From an uncultured Bdellovibrio sp. (GTDB lineage: Bacteria; Bdellovibrionota; Bdellovibrionia; Bdellovibrionales; Bdellovibrionaceae): a stretch of 64,000 nucleotides of DNA. The DNA lies in assembly GCA_963932905.1 (NCBI GenBank), contig CAWVRN010000022.1:1-64000 (forward strand), given 5' to 3'. The translations under genes were made by a program, and so were the position numbers. Within the stretch, counting starts at the first letter, position 1. Each line of letters opens with the position of its first letter. Under the pieces are notes generated by a model. That model was not told where the DNA came from. It saw only the letters and a program-made list of their open reading frames with translations, and ran no database searches. Below, one piece after another: positions 14,478-32,638 of the stretch.

Positions 14478-16034
14478 CTACCTAACAACCAAAGGCATAT
14501 CGAGAATTTGGCTCTTAGGAATCAAATAAACCCCGTGACGGACGCATGCGGCTTGAACTTCGCTATTATCAAAATGGCCCGTAACCAAGCATCTAGTCGC
14601 GGTTGGTGGCGCTTTTTGAAGCCAGTCGAGACCGGTGTCATCCGCTCCCAAATCAAAGTCAAAAAGAAAGGTGCATAAGTTTGGTTGGATTTGAATATCT
14701 TGTTGCTCCGAGAGCAGTTCTTGTCCTTGGCTCATGAACTTAGTTCGTTTCAATAGATCGGTGTCGTGAAATTTTAATTTCCACAGCGCTCGGCCTGTTT
14801 CTTTATCGTCTAGAACATAAATTCGTGAATCTGCACTAAGTTTTAGTCTTGGTAAATACCATGCAGCCCTGTCCTTTGTCGGCAGTCGAATCCTAACCGT
14901 GGTTCCAATTCCAAGTACGGATTCCAACTTAACAGAACCGCCCCAAGCCTCAATATTTTCTTTGGCATGAGAAAGGCCAATGCCTGATCCACTAATTTTG
15001 CCATGAGAAAAATTCTTCTCAAAAACATAAGGCACGTTTTTAGGATCAATTCCTTTTCCGTTATCAATTACTGAAATTTCAACTTCACCACCGGCATCCT
15101 TAGCACGAACAACAATTTTTCCCGACAAATCAATCGCTTCAATAGAATTTGTTACTATGTTTCCCAAAATAGCTCGAAGCTCAACTGGGACATGTGACAC
15201 TAATGTTGAGCAAATCATGTCGTCTACTTCATATTGAAAATCAATTGTTTTAGAAACATAAAGTGTAAGTTCTCGCTTTGCTTGCAATAAGGTGCTGTAA
15301 AGATCCGACTCGAATTCTTCTGACAGCTCGCCAATGGGTCTATCGTCAAGCTTTGCAATTAGCTCTTTAATCTGACTGATAGTGAGCTCTAAAAGTTCAC
15401 GATCATTACCGACAGCCTCAGGTAATTTTTTTGGAATTCGCATTAGTGCGGCCAAGGGTGTGCGTAAGTTATGTCGCACTTGTTGAGCCACTTCACTTTT
15501 AGCAAGCTTTTTCTCGATTTCTAAATCTCGGTCAAACTGTTCAATTAACTTTCGCTTTAAAAAGCGCGTTTGTGGTATAGACACTAGATTTAAAATCAGC
15601 CAAATTAGAAATGCGTAAGGAATTAAACGAAACCGTTCAAATTCAAAAACAATTTCATCTGTTGTTCCCGATGAAATAGAGCTCTGAATTGGTACACGAA
15701 TAGAATCCCGGCTAGCTGTTTTCCAAAAACTTTGATCTTTAAAAACTTCTGCTTTAGGCGGAATCACGAACGATCTTCCAGGCTGAGTCGATTTATAGTG
15801 AATCGTAGTGAAGCTTGAGAGCCTGGCTTCTTGTAAAATCAAGGTTGCTTCTCTGAAATCCCCGATTTTAACCATCCTAGATAAGAATCGAGTATTTTCC
15901 TCAGCTACTTTTTGCAAATGAAGCGCGTTGAAGACAACTGAAACTCCGCAAAAAATCAGAAGACATAGCCCCGAAATGATGTACTGCTTGCGTTCGAACG
16001 CTTTAATTTTATGCGCCGGTGTTTTATTATTCAT
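14478..16034 (-). CDS. Membrane sensor histidine kinase with C-terminal receiver-like domain
   Basis: Two TM helices around a small periplasmic domain; H-box RHNLRTPL, N-box NIVTNSIEA, DNGKG, GSGIGL; C-terminal VLDD...FD...VTGH...PK. Confidence 0.92.
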   Translation of the reverse strand: MNNKTPAHKIKAFERKQYIISGLCLLIFCGVSVVFNALHLQKVAEENTRFLSRMVKIGDFREATLILQEARLSSFTTIHYKSTQPGRSFVIPPKAEVFKDQSFWKTASRDSIRVPIQSSISSGTTDEIVFEFERFRLIPYAFLIWLILNLVSIPQTRFLKRKLIEQFDRDLEIEKKLAKSEVAQQVRHNLRTPLAALMRIPKKLPEAVGNDRELLELTISQIKELIAKLDDRPIGELSEEFESDLYSTLLQAKRELTLYVSKTIDFQYEVDDMICSTLVSHVPVELRAILGNIVTNSIEAIDLSGKIVVRAKDAGGEVEISVIDNGKGIDPKNVPYVFEKNFSHGKISGSGIGLSHAKENIEAWGGSVKLESVLGIGTTVRIRLPTKDRAAWYLPRLKLSADSRIYVLDDKETGRALWKLKFHDTDLLKRTKFMSQGQELLSEQQDIQIQPNLCTFLFDFDLGADDTGLDWLQKAPPTATRCLVTGHFDNSEVQAACVRHGVYLIPKSQILDMPLVVR

Positions 16035-16834
16035 TGGCCATCCGCCGTTTCTGCAACAAAACGAGCCGTCTGAATCGGCGCACTTGATAGAATTGAAACT
16101 TGTGAATGATCGACGTGAACTCTTTTTAGCATCGGAATGTCAGTGCGGAAATCGTCTGCGTCAATGTCACAAACAAGCAGGGGTTCAATCTGAGATAAAA
16201 ATTTTGAATCTATATGCCATGGGAGCTCTACATCAGACTTTTTGTTTTCATCGGTAAGCCATGCAAAATTTGGCAGAGCTTCCAATAACGATCGCTGAAT
16301 ACTTTTTTCTAAGGAATTCGACAAAGCAAATCCAAAAGCCGTGGCACCGCCAGAAGTGACCTTCATTGAACACACTAATCCGAATAGTTCTTGAGGCGTT
16401 TGCATTTTATAAAAACTTAATTCGGATTCGGGATTTAGATTTCTAAACTTTTTTGTATCGATGCTTTCAAGAAAAATTTGGTGAAATGGAATTTTTTCTT
16501 TAAGATGTTTTTTAAGATAAAATCGTTCCAAAGCCTCGTGACTGGCATGATCGATGGGATCATATGTGCTACCTATCGCAAATCCAACGGAATCAAATCC
16601 CAAGCTTTTACAAATCAATCGCTCGATTGCCTCGGCAACGGATTTTTCAAGTGCAATTTCACGGCTAGAATCTACGCCTCGACCTTTTGCCTCAGTACCA
16701 TCCCAGGAAAGAGTCGTAGAAAAATCGTGTAACCCAGGAAGGATACGATTAGACCAGCTAAACTCTTTAAATCGAGGATTTAGCTCATGCCGTTTTGAAT
16801 AAAGCCAAGCGGCTAGTGGAGTTTTATTCGCCAT
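16031..16834 (-). CDS. Compact YcaO-family protein
   Basis: GRG......ALEKSVAEAIER, S.GFA......HASHEALER, and GFA......SI.RSLLEA match YcaO ATP/Mg-binding motifs. Confidence 0.7.
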   Translation of the reverse strand: MANKTPLAAWLYSKRHELNPRFKEFSWSNRILPGLHDFSTTLSWDGTEAKGRGVDSSREIALEKSVAEAIERLICKSLGFDSVGFAIGSTYDPIDHASHEALERFYLKKHLKEKIPFHQIFLESIDTKKFRNLNPESELSFYKMQTPQELFGLVCSMKVTSGGATAFGFALSNSLEKSIQRSLLEALPNFAWLTDENKKSDVELPWHIDSKFLSQIEPLLVCDIDADDFRTDIPMLKRVHVDHSQVSILSSAPIQTARFVAETADGQ

Positions 16835-18351
16835 AATTGATTATTCGCATAGAGTTCTGATAGTTCGATCTTCCAAGGTTTTCTAACTAAAGCCGCGTAC
16901 GGTGATGCGATTAGCGGTACAATCGCAGGTTCAGATAATGCTTTATAATGAAGTTCCTTAAGCTTATTAATCCGTACTGCTTTATCATCAGTAGCCATGT
17001 AATCAGCTAGCCACGCCGAACGCTGCGACTTTGAAAGCCCCAAGAGTCCAGCATTTAATGAATACGAAATAAGACTAATGTCTTCCATAAATCCGGTGTC
17101 TCCTGATGCAAGCCACGCATGAGGAATATCTTCTTCATTTTCATATTTCTTAAATTCCGGCGAATTTGTTTCTTGGTAACAATTAGCCATAGGAAGTGCC
17201 GTCTGGATCGGGTTCGCCCATTCTTCAATGGCAGAGCGCCGGATGAGTCCAAGTTTAAAATGCTTTTTCGGAGCAGTCATATCTTGAGTGCTTACTTCGA
17301 CGAGACGTTGCTGCTGCTGAACTGTCAGTCCACCTTCGCCAAGGCTTGGAAAAAACTCAGCTCTTTGCTCATAACCCGGAATATTTTCATAAAGTTTTGC
17401 AAAGACGGCTTTCATCTTTTCGCCAATAAATCGTCTTTCACCAGCAGATAGTTCTTTTTGGCCTCGTTCAGTAAAAACGAGAAAAAGACTTCTGATTTTC
17501 ATTGTTACGTGACTTTCAAAATCTGCATTATTTGCAGCAAAGCGAAGCGCCTCACTCACTTTGGTTGAGTCTACTGTGGTTAAATGATCAATCCGATTTT
17601 CTTTTAGAGCGGTAAGGCTTGAATTCATAACCGAAGTGTCCATGGGCACTAATACGATCTTGTCAGCGATCTCAGAAGACGCAAAATAATGATTCGGATT
17701 CAGCCTAAGTACGATGTTTCCATTTCCATCATCTTCTGACAGCGAATATGGACCACTTGTTTCAGAAAAATTCGTAATTTTTAGTGTTTTTGGATCAACG
17801 CTAGATTTTGGGATTATAGCAAAATCAATCGCTGAAAGCATTGGCAGCAAAAACGATTTTCTTCCCTTGGCTTCAAGGTACACATGCCCGTTGTCCTGTC
17901 GAATGCCAGGGCATGGGTCTTCAACTGATTTTAGCTCGACGCCAGGGCAAACAATATCTTTAAAATTCCCATGTGTATTGCCGGAAAGAATTAAAAGTCT
18001 TTTTAACGAAAAAATGACGTCATCAGCGGTGATAGGAGCACCGGAAATAGTTTTTAGACCCTTTCTGATGGTGAGTCGAAGCTCGTCACCGACCCAATCA
18101 ACCTTTTCAGCAACACCAGGCTCGATGGACCCACTTTTTGAGATTTCAACGAGCGGCGAAAACACATTCTCTAAAAAAATATACTCATAGTCCATACTGA
18201 TGCTGGTCGGCTCATAAGTTGAGGCCTTCAGCTTAGCTGGAAAGGCCACTCGCAATGTTCGATCTTTATTTACATTTTTCATAGAAAGCAGTCCTCCGAC
18301 AACGAGCACAACAGCGGTCAATGTTAGCATTTTGATAGTAATATTCTTCAT
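16813..18351 (-). CDS. ABC-type family 5 (oligopeptide) substrate-binding protein, orphan
   Basis: N-terminal anchor; F.PLV......IEPGVA, G.PITADDVIFSLKR, SGPY, L..NPNHY; no permease or ATPase genes nearby. Confidence 0.85.
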   Translation of the reverse strand: MKNITIKMLTLTAVVLVVGGLLSMKNVNKDRTLRVAFPAKLKASTYEPTSISMDYEYIFLENVFSPLVEISKSGSIEPGVAEKVDWVGDELRLTIRKGLKTISGAPITADDVIFSLKRLLILSGNTHGNFKDIVCPGVELKSVEDPCPGIRQDNGHVYLEAKGRKSFLLPMLSAIDFAIIPKSSVDPKTLKITNFSETSGPYSLSEDDGNGNIVLRLNPNHYFASSEIADKIVLVPMDTSVMNSSLTALKENRIDHLTTVDSTKVSEALRFAANNADFESHVTMKIRSLFLVFTERGQKELSAGERRFIGEKMKAVFAKLYENIPGYEQRAEFFPSLGEGGLTVQQQQRLVEVSTQDMTAPKKHFKLGLIRRSAIEEWANPIQTALPMANCYQETNSPEFKKYENEEDIPHAWLASGDTGFMEDISLISYSLNAGLLGLSKSQRSAWLADYMATDDKAVRINKLKELHYKALSEPAIVPLIASPYAALVRKPWKIELSELYANNQLWRIKLH

Positions 18352-18363
18352 ATAATTCTGACC

Positions 18364-18639
18364 TTAATATGGTCCTCCACCAAGACAAACCGTGTCGGGA
18401 TCTGTTGTGCCACGGTCAATACGGCCTTCAGATTCAAGAACGCTTAGAATATCGTGATCAAATTGCACGCACTGGTTTTGGTTTGCTGTCAGGGTTTTAG
18501 TGCTACCTAAAATCCTAATCGCCCAGGCGATCTGCTGTTTTTGCAGCGGAGTCAACTTCTTGGCCTGATCTACATCAGCTAAAGCCGTGACGTTAATTCC
18601 CACCATCCCTGCGAAAATTGCTAAAATTGTTTTCTTCAT
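18364..18639 (-). CDS. 91-aa secreted peptide, candidate signal/RiPP precursor
   Basis: Sec signal MKKTILAIFAGMVGINVTALA; two Cys; C-terminus TDPDTVCLGGGPY; ATGA-coupled to the regulator. Confidence 0.8.
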   Translation of the reverse strand: MKKTILAIFAGMVGINVTALADVDQAKKLTPLQKQQIAWAIRILGSTKTLTANQNQCVQFDHDILSVLESEGRIDRGTTDPDTVCLGGGPY

Positions 18640-20027
18640 AATTCATCCCCCTCTAATGTTTTTTGTTTGAGTTCAAATCCATATTTTTTCATTTTTTCAC
18701 GTACAGTACTCCGACTAAGACCTAGTATTCGGGCTGTAGCTGCTATCGATCCACCTTCTTCGATAGCTTTTAGAACAATTTTTTTCTCGGTGCTCATTTG
18801 ACTCAGTTTAAGCATTTCTAAATCCGCAGGCTTTATTTTTATGTTAGAAATGTCGGCTCGTGTTTTTAATAAATCGGCATCCAGGTATTTTTCTGGCGAA
18901 AGGTTTACTAAAAATCGAATGCAATGCTCTAGTTCACGCACATTGCCTGGCCAACTTAGTTTTTTAAGTTCCTCAGCAGTAGATTCTAGAAGAATTTTAT
19001 TTTCTCCTGACTCTGCATTGGCTTTTTTTAAAAAAGCTTGCGCCAGAATAAGAATATCTTCTGGCCGTTCTCTGAGCGGCTTGACATTAATAGGAAGGAC
19101 ATTGAGCCTAAAGAACAAATCCTCACGAAAAGATTTTTCTGCAATCAGTTTTTCTAACGGAGCATTGGTCGCTGCAATTAGTCTGAAATCTATTTTTTTA
19201 CTTTCATTTGAACCCACAGGAGTAATTGTTTTTTCTTGAAGAACACGCAGTAAAGTGGCCTGCAAATGTTTCGGCATTTCGCCGATCTCATCTAAAAAAA
19301 TCGACCCGCCGCTAGCACTTTCAAAATGGCCTTTTCGGCTGCGAGCGGCTCCAGTGAAGGCGCCTTTTTCATGACCAAAGAGTTCACTTTCAATTAAATT
19401 TTCTGGAATAGCAGCGCAATTGACAGCAACAAATGGCATTCTGTTTCTTGGCGAAAGATTGTGTATGGCGCGGGCCACTTTTTCTTTTCCCGTTCCATTT
19501 TCGCCACGAATCAAGACCGAATCATTTGCTGGTGCAAATTTTTGAATGAGCCTTGCTACATCAGCCATTGATTCTGAAACTCCAATCATGCCAACCGATG
19601 AAATTAATTTTTGATTGTCTGTGTGTGTAGAAATTAACAGCGGTTTTTCACGACGTTCGACTTCACGACAGGCGCGATGCAAAATCCCCAGCAGCTTTGC
19701 TTCGCCGATATCTTTTTCAACAAAGAAAACTGCACCAGAGTTTAAAGATTTATTGTGCGCATCGATAGAATCATCACCAGACAAAGCCAGGACAGTAAGC
19801 TTAGGTTCAATCTGTTTGAGTTTTTGAATAGTCTCAGGGCCTTGGATTTCTGGCATATGGTAATCAACTAGGGCTAAAGAAAATGATGCTACCCTTTGAC
19901 GAATAAGTGCGATGGCCTCATCACCGGTAGACACAGCACGAACAAAGAAGCCTTCATCGTTTAAAAACGAAGTCATTGAACGCCGAAATGCCAGATCATC
20001 ATCTACGAGTAGGATGTTGTGCTTCAA
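18636..20027 (-). CDS. Sigma54-dependent response regulator (NtrC family)
   Basis: Receiver (LLVDDD, DYHMP), AAA+ GENGTGKE, GAFTGA, FLDEIG, WPGNVREL, Fis-type HTH. Confidence 0.97.
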   Translation of the reverse strand: MKHNILLVDDDLAFRRSMTSFLNDEGFFVRAVSTGDEAIALIRQRVASFSLALVDYHMPEIQGPETIQKLKQIEPKLTVLALSGDDSIDAHNKSLNSGAVFFVEKDIGEAKLLGILHRACREVERREKPLLISTHTDNQKLISSVGMIGVSESMADVARLIQKFAPANDSVLIRGENGTGKEKVARAIHNLSPRNRMPFVAVNCAAIPENLIESELFGHEKGAFTGAARSRKGHFESASGGSIFLDEIGEMPKHLQATLLRVLQEKTITPVGSNESKKIDFRLIAATNAPLEKLIAEKSFREDLFFRLNVLPINVKPLRERPEDILILAQAFLKKANAESGENKILLESTAEELKKLSWPGNVRELEHCIRFLVNLSPEKYLDADLLKTRADISNIKIKPADLEMLKLSQMSTEKKIVLKAIEEGGSIAATARILGLSRSTVREKMKKYGFELKQKTLEGDEL

Positions 20028-20064: not shown

Positions 20065-20081
20065 TACAAATATAGTGCCCA
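20065..20081 (-). promoter_or_regulatory. Candidate sigma54 (-24/-12) promoter for the regulator operon
   Basis: Minus strand TGGGCACTATATTTGTA (GG-N10-GT, one deviation from GG-N10-GC). Confidence 0.5.
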
Positions 20082-20247: not shown

Positions 20248-20567
20248 GGTGGCGGTTGTCCGCCAGGGGAACCTCCATAGGATTCGCATAATTCGCCAAG
20301 CGATGTTGCTCGCTTGATTGGCCCCGTTCAAATTGGAATAGTATTTGCGATTAGTACCAACACAGCACACGTTAAGAGCAAATTTTTTATTCAATTTAAA
20401 CGATAGGGATTCAATAACATTAATCTGATGGCTAAAGCTTAGTAGTCCGCGGCTTCACCTGGCGATAATCTTGCCGCCACTGGTGGATAGCCGCCACCCT
20501 CATCATTTTTCTAAATCTTTGAATTGCTTTCTAATTTCCAAAACAGGGGTGGCGAATAACCGCCACC
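20248..20567. repeat. Three TGGYG-N6-CGCCACC palindromic boxes, candidate enhancer (UAS) sites
   Basis: Copies at 20248-20265 (inverted), 20481-20498, 20550-20567; degenerate copy at 20460-20480. Confidence 0.7.
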
Positions 20568-20732: not shown

Positions 20733-20939
20733 ATGAATGCAAAACAAAATAGAGAGCAAACAAAACATCGGACACAGCTAAATCTAGCGCTGATCACGTT
20801 AGAAAAAGCTGAGCCGCGCTCAATCTGGCAAAAAATCAAATCAGTGCTTTCAACATCTGATTTAGATTTTGAAAATTGGCAGCGACTGGAGTCAAAAAAA
20901 TTTAAACATGGTTTCTCCGACCAGAGGAGGAATCAATAA
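20733..20939 (+). CDS. Hypothetical protein, first gene of transfer operon
   Basis: Strong SD AAAGGAGGT before ATG 20733; coupled to next gene. Confidence 0.65.
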   Translation: MNAKQNREQTKHRTQLNLALITLEKAEPRSIWQKIKSVLSTSDLDFENWQRLESKKFKHGFSDQRRNQ

Positions 20940-21190
20940 TGTCCCGTACATTAAAAGATAAAAGACCTATTTATCGCCGTGATGATGAACCCATTTACAA
21001 AACTCATGAGGAACCTGTTTTAAAACGACGATTTCTTAACTTCAGAAAATCAGGACCACGCCTGGACGGAGAAGAGTGTCCAGAATGTGGCGGGCTTACA
21101 CACTTTCAAAGTGGTTATCTAACTTGCTGTGAGTGCGGCTGGACAGAAGATGTAGTTGATATGTGTGATTTGGAAAGGTTCGCCGTATGA
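20939..21190 (+). CDS. Small zinc-ribbon protein
   Basis: CPECGG...LTCCECGW. Confidence 0.7.
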   Translation: MSRTLKDKRPIYRRDDEPIYKTHEEPVLKRRFLNFRKSGPRLDGEECPECGGLTHFQSGYLTCCECGWTEDVVDMCDLERFAV

Positions 21191-21600
21191 GTAAGCGAGC
21201 AGATTTTCCTTTTAGCAACGTAATTCCCATCAGAAAAACAGATCACTTTGGCGTATACACCGGCGATGTGCTTCCAAGCGGTGAAGTTATTGAAGGAGAA
21301 AGTGTTGGAATTGCTTTTTTAAAACAAGGCAGCAAGAAATTTCGTCTTAAACTCTTTGTTTATCCGAACAATAGCTACTTCGTCGTTCCCGACGACAAAG
21401 ACGACGCCAAGTACATCGTTCTAAGCCTAGAGGAATACCAGCTTTCCGGGGGCGAAACACGTTCGCATTGGAACCGGATCGGCGAAGGAAAACTTACCGG
21501 AAGCTTTATCGCGCTTCGACTACAGCTCATTCCGGAGCCGCTATTCCTGTGTCTATTTCCAGAAAAAAATATCGCCGAGGAGGACGCAATTGCATCTTAA
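21187..21600 (+). CDS. Hypothetical protein (DUF736-like beta fold possible)
   Basis: Duplicated VGIAF..G...F.LKL / WNRIGEG...G.F..L.L pattern; coupled in operon. Confidence 0.55.
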   Translation: MSKRADFPFSNVIPIRKTDHFGVYTGDVLPSGEVIEGESVGIAFLKQGSKKFRLKLFVYPNNSYFVVPDDKDDAKYIVLSLEEYQLSGGETRSHWNRIGEGKLTGSFIALRLQLIPEPLFLCLFPEKNIAEEDAIAS

Positions 21601-21637
21601 TCAATTTACTCAAAACAAAAATATAGGAGGTGAAAAT

Positions 21638-21922
21638 ATGAATCGAAAACAATTCTTTTTCTATGCCGTACTCACAGCTATGATCTTTATCGTTCCAGAG
21701 ATTGGCCTAGCGAGTGTGGAATCTTCGCTTATGGGGATTCAAACAAAGCTCACGCGAGTAATTCTACCGTCGCTCTCGATCTGCGCCATTGCCTGGGCTG
21801 CATTTTCAATGATGTCCGGCAATGACAAATCAAAAACGCATCTTTGGTATGCGATTATTGCAACGATTGTGGGCTTCGGGGCGGAATCCATCGTTAATTT
21901 TATATCAACGACGGTGCGCTAA
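21638..21922 (+). CDS. VirB2/TrbC-like pilin
   Basis: Small, leader plus two hydrophobic helices, precedes VirB3/VirB4; SD GGAGGTG. Confidence 0.8.
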   Translation: MNRKQFFFYAVLTAMIFIVPEIGLASVESSLMGIQTKLTRVILPSLSICAIAWAAFSMMSGNDKSKTHLWYAIIATIVGFGAESIVNFISTTVR

Positions 21923-22245
21923 TGAGTAACGAATCAATTCTAACTTCGACCGTGCCACGCACGCTAGAAACAAAAAACAAAATTTTAGGATTGGAACTTT
22001 CAGACGTTCTTGTCCTTCTTCTTAACCTTTCAGCGCAAAACCTAGTTTTTGGGTCAACAAGTTTTAAAATTCCGATGGTGTTTGGAACAAGTTTATTTCT
22101 TGGGCTAACTCTTTTCTTTTTCAAAAAAGGAAAGCCCGATCACTACCTTCAACACTTCGTTGAGCATTTCATTTCACCAACGGTTTTCGCGGCGAACGCA
22201 ATTGATCTTCAATACCGCAGATTTAACAAAGGGGGTAAGTTATGA
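21922..22245 (+). CDS. VirB3/TraL-like membrane protein
   Basis: 107 aa, two TM, KGKPD.YL.H motif, directly before VirB4. Confidence 0.7.
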   Translation: MSNESILTSTVPRTLETKNKILGLELSDVLVLLLNLSAQNLVFGSTSFKIPMVFGTSLFLGLTLFFFKKGKPDHYLQHFVEHFISPTVFAANAIDLQYRRFNKGGKL

Positions 22246-24704
22246 TTGAAGCTGCATTGTGTGAACAACTTCCATTTTGGGAATTTGAACAAAACCCGAT
22301 TCCTCATGCCATTTTATCGGACGGCTCTATTTCGGCTGGTATCGAGCTTTTGCCACTAGATATTGAATGCTTTGATGAATCCAGAATCAATCAACTGACA
22401 TTAGGATTAAGAGCGTTTACCAACTCGCTACCAGAAGGAACCACGGCGCAATTTTTAGTAAAGGTTGAATCTGACATTGAAGAAGTTCTTAAAAAACACT
22501 GTGACTTAGTTTCTACTGAAAATGAATTTTTAAAACACCTTGACGAAAAGCGATCACTACACTTATTCGATCAAATTCAGTCAGAATCTATTTTTCGACC
22601 AAGGCTTTTCTTTTTCCTAAGAACGTCTGGTGTTCAAAAGCCCAAGGCGCTTTCTTTCGGTAAAACTAAAACATTTTCAATGGAATTTGAAAAAAGTCAT
22701 GAAGATCGGATTCAGACTCTAGGTCAGGCCATTGAAGGTGCGTCTGGCCTTCTTTCATCACTTGGGTTTACGACAACTCGCTGCGAGCGAGAGGATCTTA
22801 TTCAAATCCTTTACAGCTATTTTAACCCTAAACGATCCAAGGAAATCGAAAAGCCGCATGTTTCAATAAAATCAACCGATTTAGACGACATTTCCCCAAG
22901 GGCACAAATTGTGTTTGGCGATCTGATTCTTGATCGTGAAGATTTTATTTTAGATCAGCGTCGGACTAGAGTCCTCACTTTAAAAACGCTTCCTGAAATG
23001 ACTTTCGGTGGAATGATGAGCTCTTTTCTGGCTTTGCCATTTAAATATGAACTAATTTTTTCGTTTCGTATCCAGGACCAAGCGAGTGAGATAAAAGTAT
23101 TAGAAAGTAAACGCCGTATGGCACATTCGCTTTCCAGCACAGCAAGCAATAGAGTCTCAGATTTGGAGAGCGAATCAAGGCTTTCACAAACGACTGATCT
23201 TCTACGTGAGCTGATCGAAACTGGTCAGCGCATTTACCAAGCTGAAATGATAGTGATTCTTCGTGAATCAGCAAGTATCGAAGGTGAAAAGAAATTAAAC
23301 TTACGAACGAAAGAAGTTTTGTCGCGGTTTAAAACCTTAAGTGGCTCTGAAGGAATTCAAGAAACCGTCGGTGCTTGGAAAACATTTAAATCAGATTTAC
23401 CTTTGGCCCCGCTAAGTCTTGTACGCGCGAAAGCCATGAAGACAAACAATCTTGTTGATTTTCTTCCGCTCTACGGAGCTGCCACAGGTGACGATAATCC
23501 GGTTTGTTTAACAAAGACTCGGCTCGGAACACTGTATTCTTATGATCCCTATTCATCTCGTCTTAGCAACTACAATGTGCTTACGACAGGTTCTAGCGGA
23601 TCAGGAAAAAGCTTTGCAAATAATTTTTTGATGCTTCAGCAGATCGCGCGCGGCAGCAGACTATATGTGATCGACATTGGTGGATCATACAAAAAGATGA
23701 CCGAGGTTTTAGGTGGCCAGTATTTTGAGATCAATCTTTCTGGCACATACGTCATTAATCCTTTTGAATTGTTAAATCCAGCCGAACCTCCAAGTGGAGA
23801 TCGCCTTAAAGGCTTTGTCAGCATCATCGAGCAAATGGTCGTCGATCAGGGTGAAAAATTAAACCGTTTTGATCGAGTTCAGCTAGAGGCGGCATTGACG
23901 GCAGTGTTTGAAAAAGCCCGGAAAGAATCCAAACCTCGCTCGCCTTTACTCACGGATCTTGCAAAACATTGCCTGAACGATTCTGAAGAAAGTTTAAAAC
24001 GAATTGGAAAGCTTCTTTTCCCGTGGGTTGGTAAAACTCCCTATGGAAAATTGCTTGATGGCGAGGGAAAAATTGCAGTTGATAAATCTGTCGTAGCCTT
24101 CGACCTGAAAGGACTTTCGCAGTACCCGGATCTTCAATCAGTGATGATTCTGATTTTGACAAACTTCATTTTAGAGCAAGTCGAAACTAATCGCACAGTT
24201 CCAAAGCGCGTTTTATTAGATGAGGCCTGGGAGCTTTTAAAAAGTCCAGCAGCAAGTTCTTTTATGGAATATGCCGCACGCACGTTTCGTAAAACTGGAA
24301 GCGGAATCACATTCATTACCCAAGGCGTGGAAGAGATTATTGCAAGCGGAATGGGGCCAGCGATTTTAAATAACACGGCCACAAAACTTGTAATGCTCCA
24401 AAAGGGCGACACGAATGTTCTGCGCGAAGCTTTAAAGCTCAATTCACAAGAGCTTAGGCTTATTCAAAGCTTAGAGCAAAGAAAAGGACTATTTAGTGAA
24501 GGCTTTTTAATGGAGGGTGAAAGCCGTCAGATTATCCGAATTGAACCATCACCACTGGAATATTGGATTTCGACTTCTGATGCTCGTGATAATCAGTTTT
24601 TAAATCAATTGCGTGATAAGGGCCACTCGCTTGAGTCAGCTTTATTGAAAGCGGCAGAGCTTGCGCCATTCGGAGTTTCTTCCATGAAGGCGGTGGCCGC
24701 ATGA
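22242..24704 (+). CDS. virB4: VirB4/TraC conjugative ATPase
   Basis: Walker A GSSGSGKS, VIDIGGSY, INPF, Walker B LLDEAW, RTFRK...ITQ. Confidence 0.95.
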   Translation: MIEAALCEQLPFWEFEQNPIPHAILSDGSISAGIELLPLDIECFDESRINQLTLGLRAFTNSLPEGTTAQFLVKVESDIEEVLKKHCDLVSTENEFLKHLDEKRSLHLFDQIQSESIFRPRLFFFLRTSGVQKPKALSFGKTKTFSMEFEKSHEDRIQTLGQAIEGASGLLSSLGFTTTRCEREDLIQILYSYFNPKRSKEIEKPHVSIKSTDLDDISPRAQIVFGDLILDREDFILDQRRTRVLTLKTLPEMTFGGMMSSFLALPFKYELIFSFRIQDQASEIKVLESKRRMAHSLSSTASNRVSDLESESRLSQTTDLLRELIETGQRIYQAEMIVILRESASIEGEKKLNLRTKEVLSRFKTLSGSEGIQETVGAWKTFKSDLPLAPLSLVRAKAMKTNNLVDFLPLYGAATGDDNPVCLTKTRLGTLYSYDPYSSRLSNYNVLTTGSSGSGKSFANNFLMLQQIARGSRLYVIDIGGSYKKMTEVLGGQYFEINLSGTYVINPFELLNPAEPPSGDRLKGFVSIIEQMVVDQGEKLNRFDRVQLEAALTAVFEKARKESKPRSPLLTDLAKHCLNDSEESLKRIGKLLFPWVGKTPYGKLLDGEGKIAVDKSVVAFDLKGLSQYPDLQSVMILILTNFILEQVETNRTVPKRVLLDEAWELLKSPAASSFMEYAARTFRKTGSGITFITQGVEEIIASGMGPAILNNTATKLVMLQKGDTNVLREALKLNSQELRLIQSLEQRKGLFSEGFLMEGESRQIIRIEPSPLEYWISTSDARDNQFLNQLRDKGHSLESALLKAAELAPFGVSSMKAVAA

Positions 24705-25402
24705 AAAAGAAATTTGTCGCAATTTCGTTGTGCTTTTCCATGATGCTTTCCCCAAGGGCCGCGAAAGCGGACCTCTTTGGCGGAGATGTTGCCGTTCTTC
24801 TTCAAATTCTTGCGCAGGCCATTCAAACCGTTACGACACTTCAAAGCGTTTTAGAAAACGGCAAAGATTCCCTTAATCTTATGCGCGATCTAAATGCTGG
24901 GATTAGAAGTGGTATTGATGTCATTCGTATCATCAATCCTAACTTCAATCCAGGTGTCTATGGGGATTTAAAAGATGCTGATCGTGTGCTTGCTGCGATT
25001 GAAGCTGTCTATGGAATTGTACCAAAAGGCATGGACGAAGACCTTATGCGTTCGCAAGATCAAAGCGTTTCTGAAGTTATCGCTATGAATCGTAATCTTT
25101 ACGACTACGCCGATCAAGTGGACCTCGAGCGTGACAAAATTATTTATCACGCTCAAGTCGTTAGCCCCCAAGGGGCTGGCAAGCTTCAAAACCAAGCTTT
25201 AGGCGTTCTAATCGGGGTCACTACGCAGCTTCTTCGCACGCAAAGTCAAATGCTCAAACTCATGGCGCAAAACATGGCCTATGACACGCGACAGGAAAAG
25301 CTATCAACACAGAACTTTCAGGAAAACTATCAGGGGCTCTCGAAAGGGTTTGAAAGTTTACCGAAAGACACAAAGCTTCCGCGCTTAGGTGGTGGCAAAT
25401 GA
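24701..25402 (+). CDS. VirB5/TrbJ-like exported protein
   Basis: Signal peptide, Gln-rich helical protein between VirB4 and VirB6. Confidence 0.6.
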   Translation: MKKKFVAISLCFSMMLSPRAAKADLFGGDVAVLLQILAQAIQTVTTLQSVLENGKDSLNLMRDLNAGIRSGIDVIRIINPNFNPGVYGDLKDADRVLAAIEAVYGIVPKGMDEDLMRSQDQSVSEVIAMNRNLYDYADQVDLERDKIIYHAQVVSPQGAGKLQNQALGVLIGVTTQLLRTQSQMLKLMAQNMAYDTRQEKLSTQNFQENYQGLSKGFESLPKDTKLPRLGGGK

Positions 25403-26274
25403 TGCCAAATCTTGAAGTGCTCGGAACTTTAGTGCGCGAGCTGTACCAAGGGTTAAGCCAGCTTTTCTATCTGATGTTGCCTGTTGCGATTTTATTTTCA
25501 GTGGTCTTTGGCTTTTTGAAGTCAGGTGATCCAAATTATCCAGACATTCTGAAGCGGGCTTTTGTTGCAGCACTTCTTATTGTTTCATTTCCTGAAGTTT
25601 CAAATCTTATTCTGGATGTTTGTGATGGTATAGCTTCAAAAATTGACGATATGTCGGGCCTTGAAGCTTTTATGAAGATTGCGCAAGAGAAATCACTTGG
25701 ATATGCCGCCGCCAAGAAAATTCTGCTGCTAAAATTCGATGGCTTTTTTATGGCGATTTTAAGTTTTGCAAGCTTTGCTCTACTCTATATCGCAAAGTAT
25801 TTGACGGTTGTTCTTTACTATTTTTATTGGGGACTTTTGTCGATTGCAGCACCTCTGATGATTCTTTGCTATATGTTTCCAGCAACAGCCAACATCACTG
25901 TGAATCTCTACAAGGGTCTAATTGAAGTTGCGTCATGGAAAATTATCTGGGCGATTTTATCGGCCATGCTGAAATCAATTTCGTTTGGATTCATCTATGA
26001 AAATGAGCAATCCTATCTGCCACTTGTAGCCATGAATTTTATTATTGCTATCGCTCTACTTTTTACTCCAAGGATTTTGAAATCATTAATTGGTGAAGGT
26101 GTTCAATCAACAGCAGCAAATATCGGAGCAACAGCCGTTTCGGGTGTAATGACTGCTATCACGCCAGCGGCAAAATTAGCACAAGGAGCAAAGCTTTCGC
26201 AAGTCATCATGCCGCGAGCGTGGAGTGTTCCTAATCAAAAATTCAAACCAACAACAACAAACAAACGACCTTAA
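25399..26274 (+). CDS. VirB6/TrbL-like polytopic membrane protein
   Basis: Multiple TM helices, APL motif, operon position. Confidence 0.7.
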   Translation: MMPNLEVLGTLVRELYQGLSQLFYLMLPVAILFSVVFGFLKSGDPNYPDILKRAFVAALLIVSFPEVSNLILDVCDGIASKIDDMSGLEAFMKIAQEKSLGYAAAKKILLLKFDGFFMAILSFASFALLYIAKYLTVVLYYFYWGLLSIAAPLMILCYMFPATANITVNLYKGLIEVASWKIIWAILSAMLKSISFGFIYENEQSYLPLVAMNFIIAIALLFTPRILKSLIGEGVQSTAANIGATAVSGVMTAITPAAKLAQGAKLSQVIMPRAWSVPNQKFKPTTTNKRP

Positions 26275-26294
26275 CGGTCAAAGGAGGTATTTTT

Positions 26295-26885
26295 ATGAAA
26301 GATAAAATTTCAATCCAACTTAGTTCATACCCAAAAGCCATGCGAGAATTTGCCGAAGAAAATTTAAATATCAAATTTCTTCTAAGCGCATTGCTTGCGG
26401 TTACATTTTTAATGCTGATTTTAGTGCTTTACCTTACTAAGCAAGGCCCAAAGGTGATCGCACTTGAAAGTAGTGGCGCAATCGCTACGATTGAAACCAA
26501 AGTCACCGATGCGCAAATTGAATCGGCTGCGAAAGAGTACATTCGTCACCGCTATTCATGGAATGAGCAAACTATTTCCGAAGAGCTATCAAAAGCAAAA
26601 TTTTTTGTTTTGCCGTCGCTAGCCTCAGCGTTTGAACGCTCGATGCAAGAGACAATGAAGTTCGTTCGAGAAAAGAAAGTTCGACAGCGTGTTTATCCAA
26701 AGACCATCACAGTTGATCTAAAAGAAAAACGAATTAGTGTTTTAGCGGATCGAATTACAGAGTTTGATAACCTGAAGGCTGCAACCGAGCTTAGGCTTTC
26801 TCTTCAGTTCACAATTGATGATCGAACTGTCATTAATCCGTGGGGTGTGTATGTAACAAAAGAAACTGAGGAGGCTACACTATGA
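26295..26885 (+). CDS. VirB8/TrbF-like protein
   Basis: Single TM, C-terminal R...NPWG.YV motif. Confidence 0.8.
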   Translation: MKDKISIQLSSYPKAMREFAEENLNIKFLLSALLAVTFLMLILVLYLTKQGPKVIALESSGAIATIETKVTDAQIESAAKEYIRHRYSWNEQTISEELSKAKFFVLPSLASAFERSMQETMKFVREKKVRQRVYPKTITVDLKEKRISVLADRITEFDNLKAATELRLSLQFTIDDRTVINPWGVYVTKETEEATL

Positions 26886-27595
26886 GGTTGTATATAATTT
26901 CTTTCGTTTTTTCGATTTTTATTACAACAACCGCAAGTATTGCTCAGATCCGAAAAACACACGCCAAAGAAGACGACATCCTTACAGTTAAAACGGCTTT
27001 GGGGATTGCAACGCTCTTGCAACTTCCAGAATCCATTCAATCAGCGATTATTGGTGATCTATCAGGGTTTAAAATCGAGTATCTTGAAAAAGCAGTAACG
27101 ATCAAGCCCCTTCGCTTCGGTGCAAAGACTAATTTGTATCTGGTAACGGGATCTCGGCGCTATAATCTTAGGCTGGTAACTGGAACTCAAGAGCTAGCTG
27201 ATTATATCGTGTACTTAAAGAAACCAGAAACACCAAAGCCTGAAACGAAGTGGCGTAATTTTTCTAAATCAGCCACGCAAAAAAATTTGAAACTTTCAGT
27301 TGTTCGAATCGGACAGACGCCAAGTGGATTCATCTTGATGGATGCAATTCTAACTTCGACTCAAGTTCAGCGAATAACAGTTCGGCCTGAATCTATTTGG
27401 ATTAAGCAGGCTGGAAACTCAAAAGTCATAAATAGTCTTTTTATGTCCGATTCTAAGGTCGAAAAAGATAAAGCGCTACGGATCGGTCTATCGCTAGCTA
27501 AGTCTGATTTAGCAGCTGGAAAGCCCATAACAATTGAGGTCAATTCAGAGCAATCTATATCCCTTCAAATCTTGGAGGCTGAATTATGGAAGTAA
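26882..27595 (+). CDS. VirB9/TrbG-like protein
   Basis: Signal peptide, IKP....KTNL..VT..R.Y motif. Confidence 0.75.
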   Translation: MRLYIISFVFSIFITTTASIAQIRKTHAKEDDILTVKTALGIATLLQLPESIQSAIIGDLSGFKIEYLEKAVTIKPLRFGAKTNLYLVTGSRRYNLRLVTGTQELADYIVYLKKPETPKPETKWRNFSKSATQKNLKLSVVRIGQTPSGFILMDAILTSTQVQRITVRPESIWIKQAGNSKVINSLFMSDSKVEKDKALRIGLSLAKSDLAAGKPITIEVNSEQSISLQILEAELWK

Positions 27596-28545
27596 AAAAT
27601 AAACTCTCCGTTATTAGAGACAAGCTTAAAACATTAAAAAATGGACTAAAAACTTCTGTCATCCAAGAAAATGCATTCAGTAAAAAATTTGATCTGAATA
27701 TCAAGACCATAAAACTTTTAGCGATCTTTGGCGTAGTAGTTTTCGTCACCGTTGTATTTATGATTCCAACGGACGTTCCTATCGAATTTACGGAAAAGAT
27801 TGAACGCTCGGATGAAAAGAAACCTGATTCTAACAACTCGCAAAATGCATTGCAAAACCAACAATCAGCTCAAGCGCTATGGGCAGCACCCAGGGTTTCG
27901 ATTCCGGGTGGATCAGCAGGAAACCCGGTCAATTACAATACATCAATGATCGTTGGTTCAAAACTCGGTAACGCAAAGACCGAGCTGCGCTCTGGAATTC
28001 GCGTGGCTTTAAGACTTATGGATAAGGTCATAGTTTCTCAAGACCCTGTTCCAATCTTGGCAGAGTCTATCCTTGATTCGGTTTCTGACTCTGGGTTAAG
28101 GCTTCCAGCTGGAACAAAATTCTACGGACAAGCGAGCTTTCAAAAAGGATCTGATCGTGCGCAAATTCGCTTCGATCAAATTTCTTTAGCCAGCGGACAA
28201 ATCAAACGCATTTCAGCATTTGCGCTAGATAAATCAGGACAGGCAGGCATTTCGGGAAAAGTTTTTTCAGATGGAATGAAAAACGCAACTGGCCAAGTAC
28301 TTACAACCTTTGTTGGGGGACTTGCCGCAGGAAGCATGCAAACCGATATTAAGGGAAATTCCAAAGGCGGCATTGAAAATGGACTACTCGGTGCGGTCGC
28401 TGCAACTGCACAGACTCGTGCGCAAAACTACGGCGAAAAATTAAAAACCGAAAGAGAATGGATCGAATTAAACCCAGGCACCGAGTGTGATGCGGTTTTA
28501 AATGATGCTTTCAAATTACAAGAAGGAGGTGAAAATTATGAGTAA
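27586..28545 (+). CDS. VirB10/TrbI-like protein
   Basis: N-terminal TM, LPAGTK..G, D..G.AG..G motif. Confidence 0.8.
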   Translation: MEVKNKLSVIRDKLKTLKNGLKTSVIQENAFSKKFDLNIKTIKLLAIFGVVVFVTVVFMIPTDVPIEFTEKIERSDEKKPDSNNSQNALQNQQSAQALWAAPRVSIPGGSAGNPVNYNTSMIVGSKLGNAKTELRSGIRVALRLMDKVIVSQDPVPILAESILDSVSDSGLRLPAGTKFYGQASFQKGSDRAQIRFDQISLASGQIKRISAFALDKSGQAGISGKVFSDGMKNATGQVLTTFVGGLAAGSMQTDIKGNSKGGIENGLLGAVAATAQTRAQNYGEKLKTEREWIELNPGTECDAVLNDAFKLQEGGENYE

Positions 28546-30187
28546 TCAAAAATCAGACATGTCAGATCGTGGTTTTTTAATTCTAACCACGGCGCTTGGA
28601 GCCGGAATTCTTTGGCTTAAGTATAAACTGCAAATTGTTACGTTTATCGTTAATTGGCGCATAGCAATTGCTTTTACGATTTCTCTCGGCGCTGTATTTG
28701 GTTTTCAATTGCTTCGCAAAAAGCTCAGAGCTAAGAATAAAGATTTAGACTTAGAGAATGAAATTGTGACACCAATAGATGACGAAGACGCCGTCTATGC
28801 AGGACTTTCAGTTAATGGCAAAAATATCTATGTGAAACAACCATTCAGAAGAATGCACACGCAAGTAGTCGGCACGACAAACGCTGGAAAAACTGAATCG
28901 GTTATTTTGCCTTGGGCCATTGACGACATTAAAAAACGTCGAGGGCTTTTAATCATTGATGGTAAATCCGACATGAGTCTTTTAAATAAGCTCTATGCTT
29001 ATGCCAAAAGACATCATCGTGAAAACGACATTAGAATTTTATCACTTTGTAATGTCGCAATCAGCCACTCTTTTAATCCCTTAAGCGGAGGCTCAGCACT
29101 TGAAATAACAGAGCGCGTTTTTAACGCCTTTAACTTTGAAAATGAATACTTTAAAAGTATTCAGTATGACGTTTTTCTTCATTCGTTGCTGATTCTAGAA
29201 GCTGTCGGTGTTAAACCGACGCCCTTAAGAATGATCGAATGCATGAAAAATGAAAAAGCTTTAGCAGATCTTGCCATTGCTTCAAAAAAGCCCCGACTTC
29301 AAGTTTGGGCCGGAGAATATCTAAAACTAAACCGTGAAGAGCGAGAGCAAAGAACAAGCGGCCTTGTGGCTCAACTTCAAAGTTTTGCGGTGGGCGAAAC
29401 GGCACAGGTGTTTAATACAGAAATTTCAGACATCAACCTTGAGCAAGCGTTAGAGCATAGCGAAATCATTTATTGCCAGCTTCCAGCTTTGAAAATTCCA
29501 ACGCTCGGAAAAGCGACTGGCAAAATGATTCTTCAGTGCTTACAAAGCGCGGTATCATCAAGGCACCTTGGGAAATATAATAACCAGAGCTTCTTTTCAG
29601 TTTACCTTGATGATTTTACAGAATACCTGACGCCAAGTTTTGTGACGCTATTAAATAAATCTCGAAGTGCCAATGTTGGGATCGTTTTTGCGCATCAGGC
29701 TCTCGGCGATCTTGATGGTCTGGGTGATGGGGTAAAGAACACCATTCTTACAAACTCGAATCTTAAAGTTTTTATGCGTACCAATGAACCCGAATCTGCC
29801 GAATATTTTTCATCAGTTATTGGCACGATTCAAGGATCAAAAGTAACTGAACGGCAAACTAAAAGTCTTTTCGGAAGTGAAAAAACTGGTGATGGTTCTA
29901 TTCGTGAAGTCGAAGAGTTTAAATATCATCCAAATGTCTTTAAGCAGGAGCTTGGCATCGGTGAAGCCGTGATGATTATTCCTCATGCTCAAGGCAGTCT
30001 TCCGATTCGGTTGAAATTCAAAAAATCTTTTGATCTAGATGCGCCTCAAGTTCCGCTCATTCAAAAACCAGAGCCGACGGGCCTTCCAAAACTTGAAAGC
30101 TCAGCTCCGGCGAATCAGCCGCAGACACCCTTGCGTGCTCGTGCGGATGTGATGACGGAGCTAACCCAAGAAAGGAAGGCGGTATGA
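28538..30187 (+). CDS. virD4: Type IV coupling protein (VirD4/TraD)
   Basis: Two N-terminal TM, Walker A GTTNAGKT, IIDGK, LDDF, KSRSA...AHQ. Confidence 0.92.
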   Translation: MSNQKSDMSDRGFLILTTALGAGILWLKYKLQIVTFIVNWRIAIAFTISLGAVFGFQLLRKKLRAKNKDLDLENEIVTPIDDEDAVYAGLSVNGKNIYVKQPFRRMHTQVVGTTNAGKTESVILPWAIDDIKKRRGLLIIDGKSDMSLLNKLYAYAKRHHRENDIRILSLCNVAISHSFNPLSGGSALEITERVFNAFNFENEYFKSIQYDVFLHSLLILEAVGVKPTPLRMIECMKNEKALADLAIASKKPRLQVWAGEYLKLNREEREQRTSGLVAQLQSFAVGETAQVFNTEISDINLEQALEHSEIIYCQLPALKIPTLGKATGKMILQCLQSAVSSRHLGKYNNQSFFSVYLDDFTEYLTPSFVTLLNKSRSANVGIVFAHQALGDLDGLGDGVKNTILTNSNLKVFMRTNEPESAEYFSSVIGTIQGSKVTERQTKSLFGSEKTGDGSIREVEEFKYHPNVFKQELGIGEAVMIIPHAQGSLPIRLKFKKSFDLDAPQVPLIQKPEPTGLPKLESSAPANQPQTPLRARADVMTELTQERKAV

Positions 30188-32441: not shown

Positions 32442-32638
32442 CTGCGGGGCGAAAACCAAATCCCTTTTACATCGTAGATTCAAGCCTTCCAGTGAACCTA
32501 ATCCCGACGCCGGAATCATCTGATGAGTTCCAAAAGCGTCGCGAAGAAGTGCAAGACATGATTGTCCGAATTCTTCTCACGGGAAAGAAACGCGGTCGTC
32601 CATCTAAGAAGGAGGAAAACATTGAAAACGCAGCTTAA
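32438..32638 (+). CDS. 66-aa basic protein, candidate recombination directionality factor
   Basis: ATG 32438 overlaps XRE stop; KKRGRPSKK AT-hook-like motif; overlaps integrase start. Confidence 0.6.
   Translation: MTAGRKPNPFYIVDSSLPVNLIPTPESSDEFQKRREEVQDMIVRILLTGKKRGRPSKKEENIENAA

Follow-up and report, generated by a model that had tools for sequence, protein, structure and literature searches.

A conserved operon joining a YcaO-like protein, a small Cys-tailed peptide and a sigma-54 signalling relay in Bdellovibrionota: a candidate peptide circuit beside conjugation genes

The five-gene operon and its products

The stretch of DNA considered here (the window) comprises 64,000 nucleotides of an uncultured Bdellovibrio sp. 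(assembly GCA_963932905.1, contig CAWVRN010000022.1, positions 1 to 64,000), and the present work deals with a cassette of five open reading frames (ORFs) on its minus strand, from 20027 to 14478, exactly where a first-pass annotation of the sequence had placed them. In order of transcription, they encode an activator of the NtrC type, a small precursor-like peptide, an orphan family-5 solute-binding protein (SBP), a compact protein with a YcaO fold and a probably hybrid sensor histidine kinase (Table 1). The first and second genes overlap by 4 nt, the second and third are 12 nt apart, the third and fourth overlap by 22 nt, and the fourth and fifth by 4 nt; with junctions of this size the tight coupling is real, and the single operon proposed in the first-pass annotation stands. 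One metatranscriptome contig from a 93%-identical relative spans the 3' end of the activator gene, the peptide gene and the 5' end of the SBP gene, in a single run that covers part of the stretch and carries no information on strand, transcript start or level; as DNA carry-over is possible, this is a weak hint of co-transcription at best.

The activator carries Response_reg, Sigma54_activat (E 9e-71), AAA lid and HTH_8 domains in Pfam, and the GAFTGA loop can be read in its translation. Its best NCBIfam matches are ntrC, PEP_resp_reg, AtoC and LuxO, every one below the cut-off of its model, including LuxO at E 1e-92. The NtrC-type assignment made at first sight is thus supported by the domains and the loop, and the other attributes of the class are present as well: a Fis-type helix-turn-helix (HTH), an rpoN gene in the genome and a -24/-12 promoter element, described below. 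The SBP begins with a hydrophobic signal or anchor without a lipobox Cys, and is strongly conserved, with a mean column identity of 75% over 14 sequences, the distant type of cassette included. No ABC permease or ATPase gene was detected among the 59 window ORFs scanned with Pfam, which cover the cassette and the putative integrative and conjugative element (ICE) at whose left edge it lies; together with the SBP_bac_5 match, this agrees with the description of the protein as an orphan.

The kinase had been described as a two-transmembrane histidine kinase, and this part holds: two hydrophobic segments flank a periplasmic loop of ~95 aa, followed by an H-box (VRHNLRTPL) and a HATPase_c domain. 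The description was incomplete, however, as residues ~395-518 (window 14478-14852) look like a receiver domain, and an alignment of 15 homologues from both cassette types keeps its DD, D, T and K positions, so that the protein is probably a hybrid kinase. Pfam Response_reg does not match this C-terminal domain even at E<=10, and no Hpt protein is encoded in the operon or nearby.

Table 1. Features of the cassette, its control region and the adjoining mobile element. Identities are those to the window protein in the close loci.
Feature	Position	Strand	Length and basis	Identity (%)
NtrC-type sigma-54 enhancer-binding response regulator (activator)	18636..20027	-	463 aa; REC, AAA+ with GAFTGA, HTH_8	63-75
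Peptide, precursor-like small protein	18364..18639	-	91 aa; C-terminal end ...GTTDPDTVCLGGGPY	53-71
Orphan family-5 solute/peptide-binding protein	16813..18351	-	512 aa; PF00496, E 1.5e-12	59-76
Compact stand-alone YcaO-fold protein	16031..16834	-	267 aa; invariant GRG, E68, E71, E100, E103, R104	40-58
Sensor histidine kinase, probably hybrid	14478..16034	-	518 aa; Pfam HATPase_c and alignment of 15 homologues	46-68
Sigma-54-type promoter element GGCAC-N5-TTGT	20065..20080	-	~40-55 nt upstream of the activator start codon; alignment of upstream regions	
Palindrome TGGCGG-TTGT-CCGCCA	20250..20265	.	~180 bp upstream of the sigma-54 promoter; candidate enhancer/activator-binding site	
Imperfect palindrome TGGTGG-ATAG-CCGCCA	20481..20496	.	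Distal member of the pair upstream of tra	
Palindrome TGGCGA-ATAA-CCGCCA	20550..20565	.	Proximal member of the pair; the first tra start codon follows ~170 bp on	
Conjugation (type IV secretion) operon	20733..30187	+	Small conserved ORFs, TrbC/VirB2 pilin, VirB4/TraC ATPase, VirB8-, VirB9- and VirB10-like proteins, coupling protein; Pfam	
Large serine recombinase	32562..34337	+	Right end of the element; 3' end overlaps tRNA-Gln (34316-34391, minus strand; ARAGORN)	

A compact protein of the YcaO fold

The fourth gene product is a YcaO by its domain fold and its nucleotide/Mg-binding motif, as the first-pass annotation had suggested, but the family models do not recognize it: the 267-aa protein has no Pfam or NCBIfam match even at E<=10. 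Among 40 aligned homologues, 12 touch the YcaO model PF02624 at E<=1, the best with E 1.2e-5, while PF02624 finds nothing in the whole genome from which the window derives. In the same 40 sequences, G51-R52-G53, K64, E68, E71, E100, E103 and R104 are invariant, and these residues stay so in a 25-sequence alignment that includes a type of only 22-23% identity.

Compared by eye, the protein carries the ATP/Mg-binding motifs SxxxExxER and Sx6-7Ex3Qx3ExxER, the second being the ATP-binding motif of Dunbar et al. as quoted in PMC7774982, and both ExxER glutamate pairs are kept. The segment GRG...EKSVAEAIER of the window protein corresponds to GKG...ASALGEYFER of E. coli YcaO, and SVG...D-x3-H-x3-EALER to SAGNTRNEARVQGLSEVFER, with two deviations in the family, namely His96 at the Q position and mostly Asp92 at the position of the upstream E. 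The correspondence with the E. coli enzyme rests on inspection, since an hhalign comparison of the family alignment with the single E. coli sequence gave a mis-registered match of 2.8% probability. Searches against solved structures returned no match for the single protein, and two chance-level matches for the family profile.

At 267 aa, ending in ...FVAETADGQ, the protein is about one third shorter than a usual YcaO, and compactness is a property of its relatives too: homologues forming 102 clusters measure 190-282 aa, and an exhaustive profile search gathered 931 family clusters at 50% identity, 562 of them with E<=1e-10; lengths among the best 150 run from 115 to 410 aa.

The Cys-tailed peptide

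By inspection, the 91-aa product of the second gene consists of a signal peptide (cleavage after ALA21), a conserved helical region, two cysteines (Cys57 and Cys85) and a variable tail following a C-x-G motif. Both its position and its signal peptide agree with the Sec-exported peptide announced by the first-pass annotation. It has no Pfam or NCBIfam match even at E<=10, and a search of the ESM Atlas gave no match above 0.8. The AlphaFold2 model is of low confidence (pLDDT 51.8); in it, C57 and C85 would come close to each other through an arrangement of two helices with two short strands.

Thirty close homologues share the signal peptide, then a conserved stretch (KKLTPLQK-QIAWAIRILG-TKTL...NQC-FD-DIL--LE), and then a looser G-x-x-x-P-x-x-(I/V)-C-x-G, with C57, C85 and G87 invariant in 30/30. 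What follows falls into discrete kinds of tail (GGGPY, GASGITK, GASGGITK, GSQ, GGGAF, GGGPGAASATK and others). The alignment that the first-pass annotation had called for, with a conserved leader and a variable core in mind, yields a family in which the N-terminal two thirds are conserved and the C-terminal part varies more but keeps its Cys. The second complete element of the same genome, on contig C1, has a peptide tail that differs from that of the window (...VCFGGGPGAASAS...).

The same plan can be followed much further out. In the distant type of cassette found in the window genome, the C-terminal Cys is the one residue shared with the window peptide (...AAQSSICGKQK). An SBP gene is adjacent at 18 distant loci, and at all of them it is directly preceded by an ORF that begins like a signal peptide, as judged by eye; in 16 of these ORFs a Cys lies 1-28 residues from the C-terminus, preceded in 13 of these by I, V or L; typical ends are GTICF (twice), GTICM, RTICL, SVICY, GGICE, SAICLKQ and SICADGSN. 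A short precursor gene beside an enzyme gene, with a conserved recognition part and a modifiable residue, is the arrangement of clusters for peptides made on the ribosome and modified after translation (RiPPs), and a conserved N-terminus with a single nucleophilic residue near a variable C-terminus is what one would expect of a YcaO precursor. Such precursors do not usually carry a Sec signal peptide, but there is a precedent in the bufferins, as described in the accessible part of PMC11626156.

Conservation and spread of the cassette

A scan of close relatives, with one genome per species, returned 13 loci, three of them cut by contig ends, and the named relatives are genomes of Bdellovibrio, Pseudobdellovibrio, Bdellovibrionaceae and Oligoflexia. 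All ten loci with enough sequence carry the five genes in the same order, and the three cut loci keep the downstream genes in order. The window genome (98.6% complete) holds four cassettes of two types. Besides that of the window, a second complete element of the same family lies on contig C1 (523,800-543,000; L015), where cassette and tra run in the same direction, the kinase gene and tra being only ~300 bp apart. Two near-identical copies of the distant type, on C30 (1-6227; L016) and C56 (L017), stand at contig ends and encode an activator, a small signal-peptide protein with a single Cys, a binding protein, a YcaO-like protein (26% identical) and a kinase; C56, of 5.7 kb, is probably a collapsed repeat.

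Within a sample of the phylum Bdellovibrionota, the YcaO-like profile matched in 71 of the 401 genomes, which belong to 46 of the 203 genera; more than one match per genome is common. Of the best 29 places outside the window, 25 have the order SBP–YcaO–kinase, two have activator–YcaO–kinase, and two SBP–YcaO only (one at a contig end); the SBP–YcaO–kinase core remains recognizable down to 22-30% identity. Twenty matched places (19 of them among the best 29) were fetched with ~7 kb on each side: an NtrC-type activator gene stands upstream of the SBP gene in 11, two have activator–YcaO–kinase without an SBP gene between, and seven have no detectable NtrC-type neighbour.

The first-pass annotation had staked its proposal on the five genes recurring together, and they do, with the order kept in 10/10 loci, four copies in one genome and a phylum-wide core. 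It had placed the system in a Gram-negative ICE, to which the cassette is not confined: it is an architecture of the whole phylum, also found in chromosomal-looking settings. Where tra genes are absent, its neighbours are restriction-modification genes, SNF2 helicases, a transposase, or chromosomal genes such as mfd, ybeY and tatC. Tra genes stand beside the cassette in the window, C1, L001, L003, L011, L012, L013, the L005 genome, L049, L051 (distant type), L052 and L064, and L061 has TraU- and VirB11/PilT-type genes next to it. The cassette is read here as a general signalling device of the phylum, repeatedly adopted by conjugative elements. The L011 locus with cassette and tra genes is assigned to a metagenome-assembled genome of uncultured Chlamydiae, while every other relative with a name belongs to Bdellovibrionota; this is likely due to a transfer or an error in binning.

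The sigma-54 promoter and the palindromes

The element GGCAC-N5-TTG(T/A) lies about 35-55 nt before the activator start codon in 11/11 aligned close loci; it is also present in the C1 copy, and the C30 copy has a perfect GGCAC-N5-TTGC. At distant loci, a TGGCAC-N5-TTGC-like element (at least 8 of 11 consensus positions) occurs 21-66 nt upstream in 10 of 13, for an expected count of 0.012 per 60-nt window from the genome-wide rate. A scan that requires GC at -12 misses the promoter of the window operon, as this cassette type has TTGT or TTGA, a variant seen by aligning the upstream regions. An operon with a sigma-54 promoter and the gene of its own activator has a positive-feedback layout. Of the sigma-54-dependent transcription foreseen in the first-pass annotation for the operon and possibly for tra, the first half is supported by this promoter, but the tra promoter does not look like one of the canonical sigma-54 kind. 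There, a TTGC(A/T) block is conserved at a fitting distance, ~110 bp after the proximal palindrome, but the -24 GG is present in one of six aligned elements and off-register in L012 and L013, so that a canonical sigma-54 promoter for tra is not supported; a sigma-70 pattern scan gave fewer matches than in shuffles.

A palindrome, TGGCGG-N4-CCGCCA, is found ~180 bp upstream of the activator promoter in 9 of 11 loci, and a pair of such palindromes, 65-72 bp apart, stands ~140-250 bp before the first tra gene in all eight elements compared (window, C1, L001, L003, L011, the L005 genome, L012 and L013). The pair is present even where 13 kb part the cassette from tra (L005 genome) and where the type IV secretion system (T4SS) is of another type (L012 and L013, VirB4 24% identical). 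In its strict form, TGGCG-N6-CGCCA occurs six times in the 4.55-Mb genome, four of them in two ICE control regions. The distant type has two GTCCGR-N4-CCGRAC sites before its own sigma-54 promoter, which share the core CGG-N4-CCG with the window palindrome. From this distribution, the palindromes are candidate binding sites of the cassette activator.

The mobile element

The cassette lies at the left edge of a ~20-kb mobile element, as shown by the sulfide:quinone reductase gene that precedes it, the last gene of a sulfide-detoxification operon, which is cut after 97 codons at 14102, where the element begins. That operon (9982-14102) encodes a CRP-type regulator, a persulfide dioxygenase-rhodanese fusion, YeeE/YedE-like pieces and a TauE exporter. 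The remainder of the reductase gene was not found on the contig, no convincing direct repeat flanks the two element ends, and no relaxase was recognized by Pfam in the region that separates coupling protein and recombinase (30474-32638), whose four ORFs have no Pfam match. Nested inverted repeats at 31323-31423 (19-nt arms, 95% complementary, with an inner 22-nt pair) could be an origin of transfer.

The activator gene starts at 20027 and the first tra ORF at 20685, on the opposite strand. The divergent arrangement reported at first sight is therefore correct for the window, but it is the rarer layout; cassette and tra are co-directional in 5 of the first 13 loci and in the C1 copy. The start of the first tra ORF is probably at 20733 rather than 20685, where AAGGAGGTG (a ribosome-binding site) and ATG are conserved in six elements. 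ORF 20939-21190 encodes a conserved zinc-ribbon protein, present even beside the other type of T4SS.

The VirB4 proteins of the window and of the L005 genome are 92% identical, as against only 52-74% for the proteins of their cassettes; elements have therefore exchanged their cassette and tra modules. In the L006-L009 genomes VirB4 is 88-93% identical to that of the window; linkage with the cassette on the same contig was checked for L005 only.

A possible peptide circuit and its alternatives

What could such a cassette do? The reading examined here, for which the chances look about even, is a self-inducing peptide circuit in the manner of agr and ComQXPA, in which a YcaO-modified, Sec-exported peptide would be sensed by SBP and kinase, with an output coupled to tra. 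In the cytoplasm, the precursor would be activated by the YcaO enzyme, at the expense of ATP, on the backbone amide of its conserved (I/V)-Cys, with a thiazoline as the simplest product and a thioamide or another amide-derived product also conceivable. The modified peptide would then be exported by the Sec pathway and lose its signal peptide, and in the periplasm, whole or trimmed by a protease encoded elsewhere, it would be recognized by the orphan binding protein, serving as co-receptor of the hybrid kinase. The kinase would set the phosphorylation state of the activator, which, bound to TGGCGG-N4-CCGCCA sites, would drive its own sigma-54 promoter in a positive feedback, and would also modulate the conjugation operon through the paired palindromes. 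Four of these steps, the modification of the peptide by the YcaO-like protein, its binding by the SBP, the binding of the palindrome by the activator and the control of tra by the cassette, are inferred from sequence. A complex prediction for the binding protein (27-512) with the mature peptide (22-91), in two runs without controls, scored 0.00, which counts neither for nor against binding. The quorum-sensing-like circuit of the first-pass annotation gains from the co-occurrence of the genes, the YcaO fold, the peptide pattern, the sigma-54 promoter and the shared palindrome, but is not confined to ICEs, and it has to accommodate a hybrid kinase and loci without a peptide gene. In its widest form, it would describe pheromone circuits across the phylum, with a YcaO heterocycle (or thioamide) at the single C-terminal (I/V)-Cys of a Sec-exported precursor, an OppA-family SBP signalling to a hybrid kinase and a sigma-54 feedback loop, together licensing conjugative transfer; this broader statement is held tentatively, and is rather doubtful as a whole.

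A number of observations weigh against the circuit. On the enzyme side, neither a leader-binding partner (E1-like, Ocin-ThiF) in the operon or ICE nor a TfuA domain, as in thioamide formation, in the operon proteins was found by Pfam among the 59 window ORFs, and the YcaO-like protein lacks a proline-rich C-terminus; a proline-rich (PxPxP) end is important in azoline-forming YcaOs. Because stand-alone YcaOs exist, the missing partner does not rule out YcaO activity. The C1 copy has a Cys at the otherwise invariant Arg52 (GCG instead of GRG). At L054 and L055, an activator, a longer YcaO-like protein (321-336 aa, ending in ...PHPLG) and a kinase are encoded with no peptide gene between them, and since YcaO, kinase and activator are kept there without the peptide, the YcaO may have another substrate. 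(Both loci have a large SNF2-type helicase gene just upstream, and L055 a binding-protein gene downstream on the opposite strand.) YcaO enzymes also act on whole proteins, according to the accessible text of PMC13063428. On the peptide side, the N-terminal two thirds of the mature part are so strongly conserved that they could be a folded functional domain and not a leader; 2 of the 18 distant peptides have no Cys and end in Ser followed by a Gly-rich stretch (...VLSKGGGGA, ...ASLGNGGR); and SBP and activator are the slowest-evolving parts while the peptide tail varies, unlike a receptor that tracks a variable tail. As to export and relay, no protease is encoded in the cassette, and a 69-aa periplasmic protein needs trimming or a channel to leave a diderm cell; no outer-membrane route for the peptide is visible, and the operon encodes no Hpt protein with which the receiver-like part of the kinase could pair.

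Several of these observations also count for another, unlikely explanation: a three-component environmental sensor, in which SBP and kinase would respond to an external ligand (a metal chelate, an opine-like compound, or peptides set free by prey or neighbours) and pass the signal on to the sigma-54 activator. In that case the small protein would be a periplasmic accessory or inhibitor, in a CpxP-like role, and the YcaO would act in the cytoplasm on another target, such as the kinase, its receiver domain or the activator, or serve as an ATP-dependent accessory. Known systems (LuxP/LuxQ/LuxO, AioX/AioS/AioR, TorT/TorS) combine an SBP, a kinase and a sigma-54 activator in this way. A very conserved binding protein fits a fixed ligand, and a mostly conserved mature small protein fits an accessory role; the YcaO gene always lies between the SBP and kinase genes, with overlapping stop and start codons; L054 and L055 retain YcaO and kinase without the peptide; and modification of whole proteins by YcaO enzymes has a precedent (PMC13063428). 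What this sensor leaves without account is that, beside the YcaO gene of almost every locus, a signal-peptide ORF has a Cys (or Ser) near its C-terminus, in sequences that otherwise cannot be aligned, and the Cys being the sole residue kept between the two peptide types of the genome; the pLDDT of the small protein also makes a stable accessory fold a weak proposition.

Quite improbable is a periplasmic RiPP effector with a function of its own, such as a thiazoline peptide that binds metal or protects the cell as bufferins do, with a sensor that only regulates its production under the condition it handles and an incidental link to conjugation. The operon encodes receptor-type proteins of its own, always in the same order relative to the enzyme, and is driven from the promoter of its activator, which is an autoinduction layout and not that of a stress effector; one modifiable residue makes a poor metal site, and palindromes shared with the tra upstream region in 8/8 elements speak against an incidental link. 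In its favour, family-5 binding proteins include metal-chelate binders, and many distant cassettes have no tra genes nearby. Sec-exported RiPPs of ~60-70 residues that stay in the periplasm are also documented, for the bufferins, in the accessible part of PMC11626156.

Does the cassette control conjugation at all? This is a separate question from the nature of the signal, and the negative answer lies on the unlikely side: the palindromes would be terminators, or sites of a small protein encoded in tra, and the cassette would be cargo or an independent regulator. Several points in its favour are also points against the tra branch of the peptide circuit. The proximal palindrome scores terminator-like, and in C1 and L011 a T-run follows the distal copy, just past the kinase gene; the tra promoter is not sigma-54-like, and with the -24 GG missing, the standard action of an enhancer-binding activator would not be possible there; the small conserved tra ORFs, one of them the zinc-ribbon protein, go with the palindromes in all elements and could encode their binders instead; and the cassette also occurs without nearby tra genes. 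On the other side, the stem GGCGG/CCGCC is itself conserved while the spacer varies, with no compensatory changes; a palindrome also stands upstream of the activator gene, where no termination is needed; most copies have no T-run; in the distant type of cassette, another palindrome that shares the core stands before the type's own sigma-54 promoter; and the cassette adjoins tra in at least 12 elements, with several cassette and T4SS types.

Other features of the window

Three further gene groups complete the picture of the window. A bufferin-like RiPP cluster (1767-5472) begins with genes for a YHS-domain protein and YceI, followed by a 102-aa multi-Cys protein with a signal peptide (2826-3134), an enzyme of the MbnB/TglH/ChrH family (3138-3968; Pfam E 1.6e-73) and two ORFs without Pfam match (3965-4621 and 4543-5472); it resembles the buf1 layout, as far as the available text of PMC11626156 describes it. 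A Bat-type (aerotolerance) operon at 37401-45021 encodes a MoxR ATPase, a DUF58 protein, BatA/BatB-like VWA proteins, a TPR protein and BatD, and is followed by two lytic transglycosylase genes. On the minus strand, 60382-62898 holds an adaptive-response cluster with an Ada/AlkA fusion, an Ogt-type methyltransferase and an AlkB-type dioxygenase.

Novelty and comparison with known systems

Among the papers listed by full-text searches on YcaO together with histidine kinases, SBPs or sigma-54, Bdellovibrio, quorum sensing, two-component systems or precursor peptides, and on conjugative elements of Bdellovibrio, none was seen to describe such a cassette. The parts belong to known families and the logic has analogues (agr, ComQXPA, LuxPQ-LuxO, PrgZ/Phr); what is new is the combination of genes, the compact YcaO clade and the fixed place of the YcaO gene between those of SBP and kinase. 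YcaO enzymes are known from antibiotic-type RiPPs and from a few modifications of protein backbones, and most of the superfamily has no assigned role. There is a substantial chance that the cassette is the first YcaO-dependent signalling system, and if the peptide circuit is true in its widest form, a diderm lineage would have its first known case of modified-peptide quorum sensing, and a YcaO enzyme its first role in signalling. To our knowledge, gene-encoded, enzyme-modified peptide signals are almost unknown in diderm bacteria, to which the circuit would add one. For the YcaO field, the 931 clusters represent a large, short and unrecognized clade with a concrete substrate candidate and a read-out. 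For mobile elements, a confirmed circuit would provide an ICE switch of Bdellovibrionota comparable to the pheromone and Phr systems of Firmicutes, with candidate operator sites already located.

Among known systems, agrBDCA of staphylococci and comQXPA of Bacillus come closest in logic, being autoregulated operons in which a precursor and the enzyme dedicated to its modification are encoded together with a histidine kinase of the membrane and a response regulator, with a precursor made of a conserved N-terminal part and a variable signal part with one key residue. The present cassette, known from its sequence alone, differs by a YcaO-fold enzyme in place of AgrB or ComQ, a Sec signal peptide on the precursor, an additional periplasmic family-5 SBP, a sigma-54 activator and a two-membrane host. 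In LuxP/LuxQ/LuxU/LuxO of Vibrio, as in AioXSR and TorTSR, a periplasmic SBP acts as co-receptor of a (hybrid) kinase that signals to an NtrC-type sigma-54 activator, the role proposed for the SBP of the cassette, whereas here the SBP is of another family, the operon has no Hpt gene and encodes a candidate peptide signal itself, and the YcaO is obligate.

With YcaO RiPP pathways (bottromycin-type stand-alone enzymes, cyanobactins, microcin B17, thioamides) the cassette shares the fold, both ExxER pairs and an adjacent short precursor with Cys or Ser; it departs from them by proteins of ~260-340 aa that PF02624 misses, by a single candidate site, by the lack of a partner protein, dehydrogenase, protease or dedicated exporter, and by a gene embedded between those of SBP and kinase. 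Bufferins have in common with the window peptide a Sec signal peptide and a mature part of ~60-70 residues, and their Cys is modified in the cytoplasm before export, as far as the accessible part of PMC11626156 reports, which is also what is proposed for the window peptide; they differ in enzyme and chemistry (MNIO and DUF2063) and in being metal-buffering effectors with no link to a receptor or kinase. Finally, the systems of pCF10 (PrgZ/cCF10) and ICEBs1 (RapI-PhrI) in Firmicutes place the transfer of an element under the control of a Sec-exported pro-peptide and an OppA-family SBP, encoded by the element or the host, as the cassette may do, but their peptide is unmodified and is imported by a permease to a cytoplasmic receptor, whereas in the cassette and its ICE a kinase stands in place of the permease and ATPase of Opp-dependent pheromone import, and it is this kinase that would carry the signal across the membrane.

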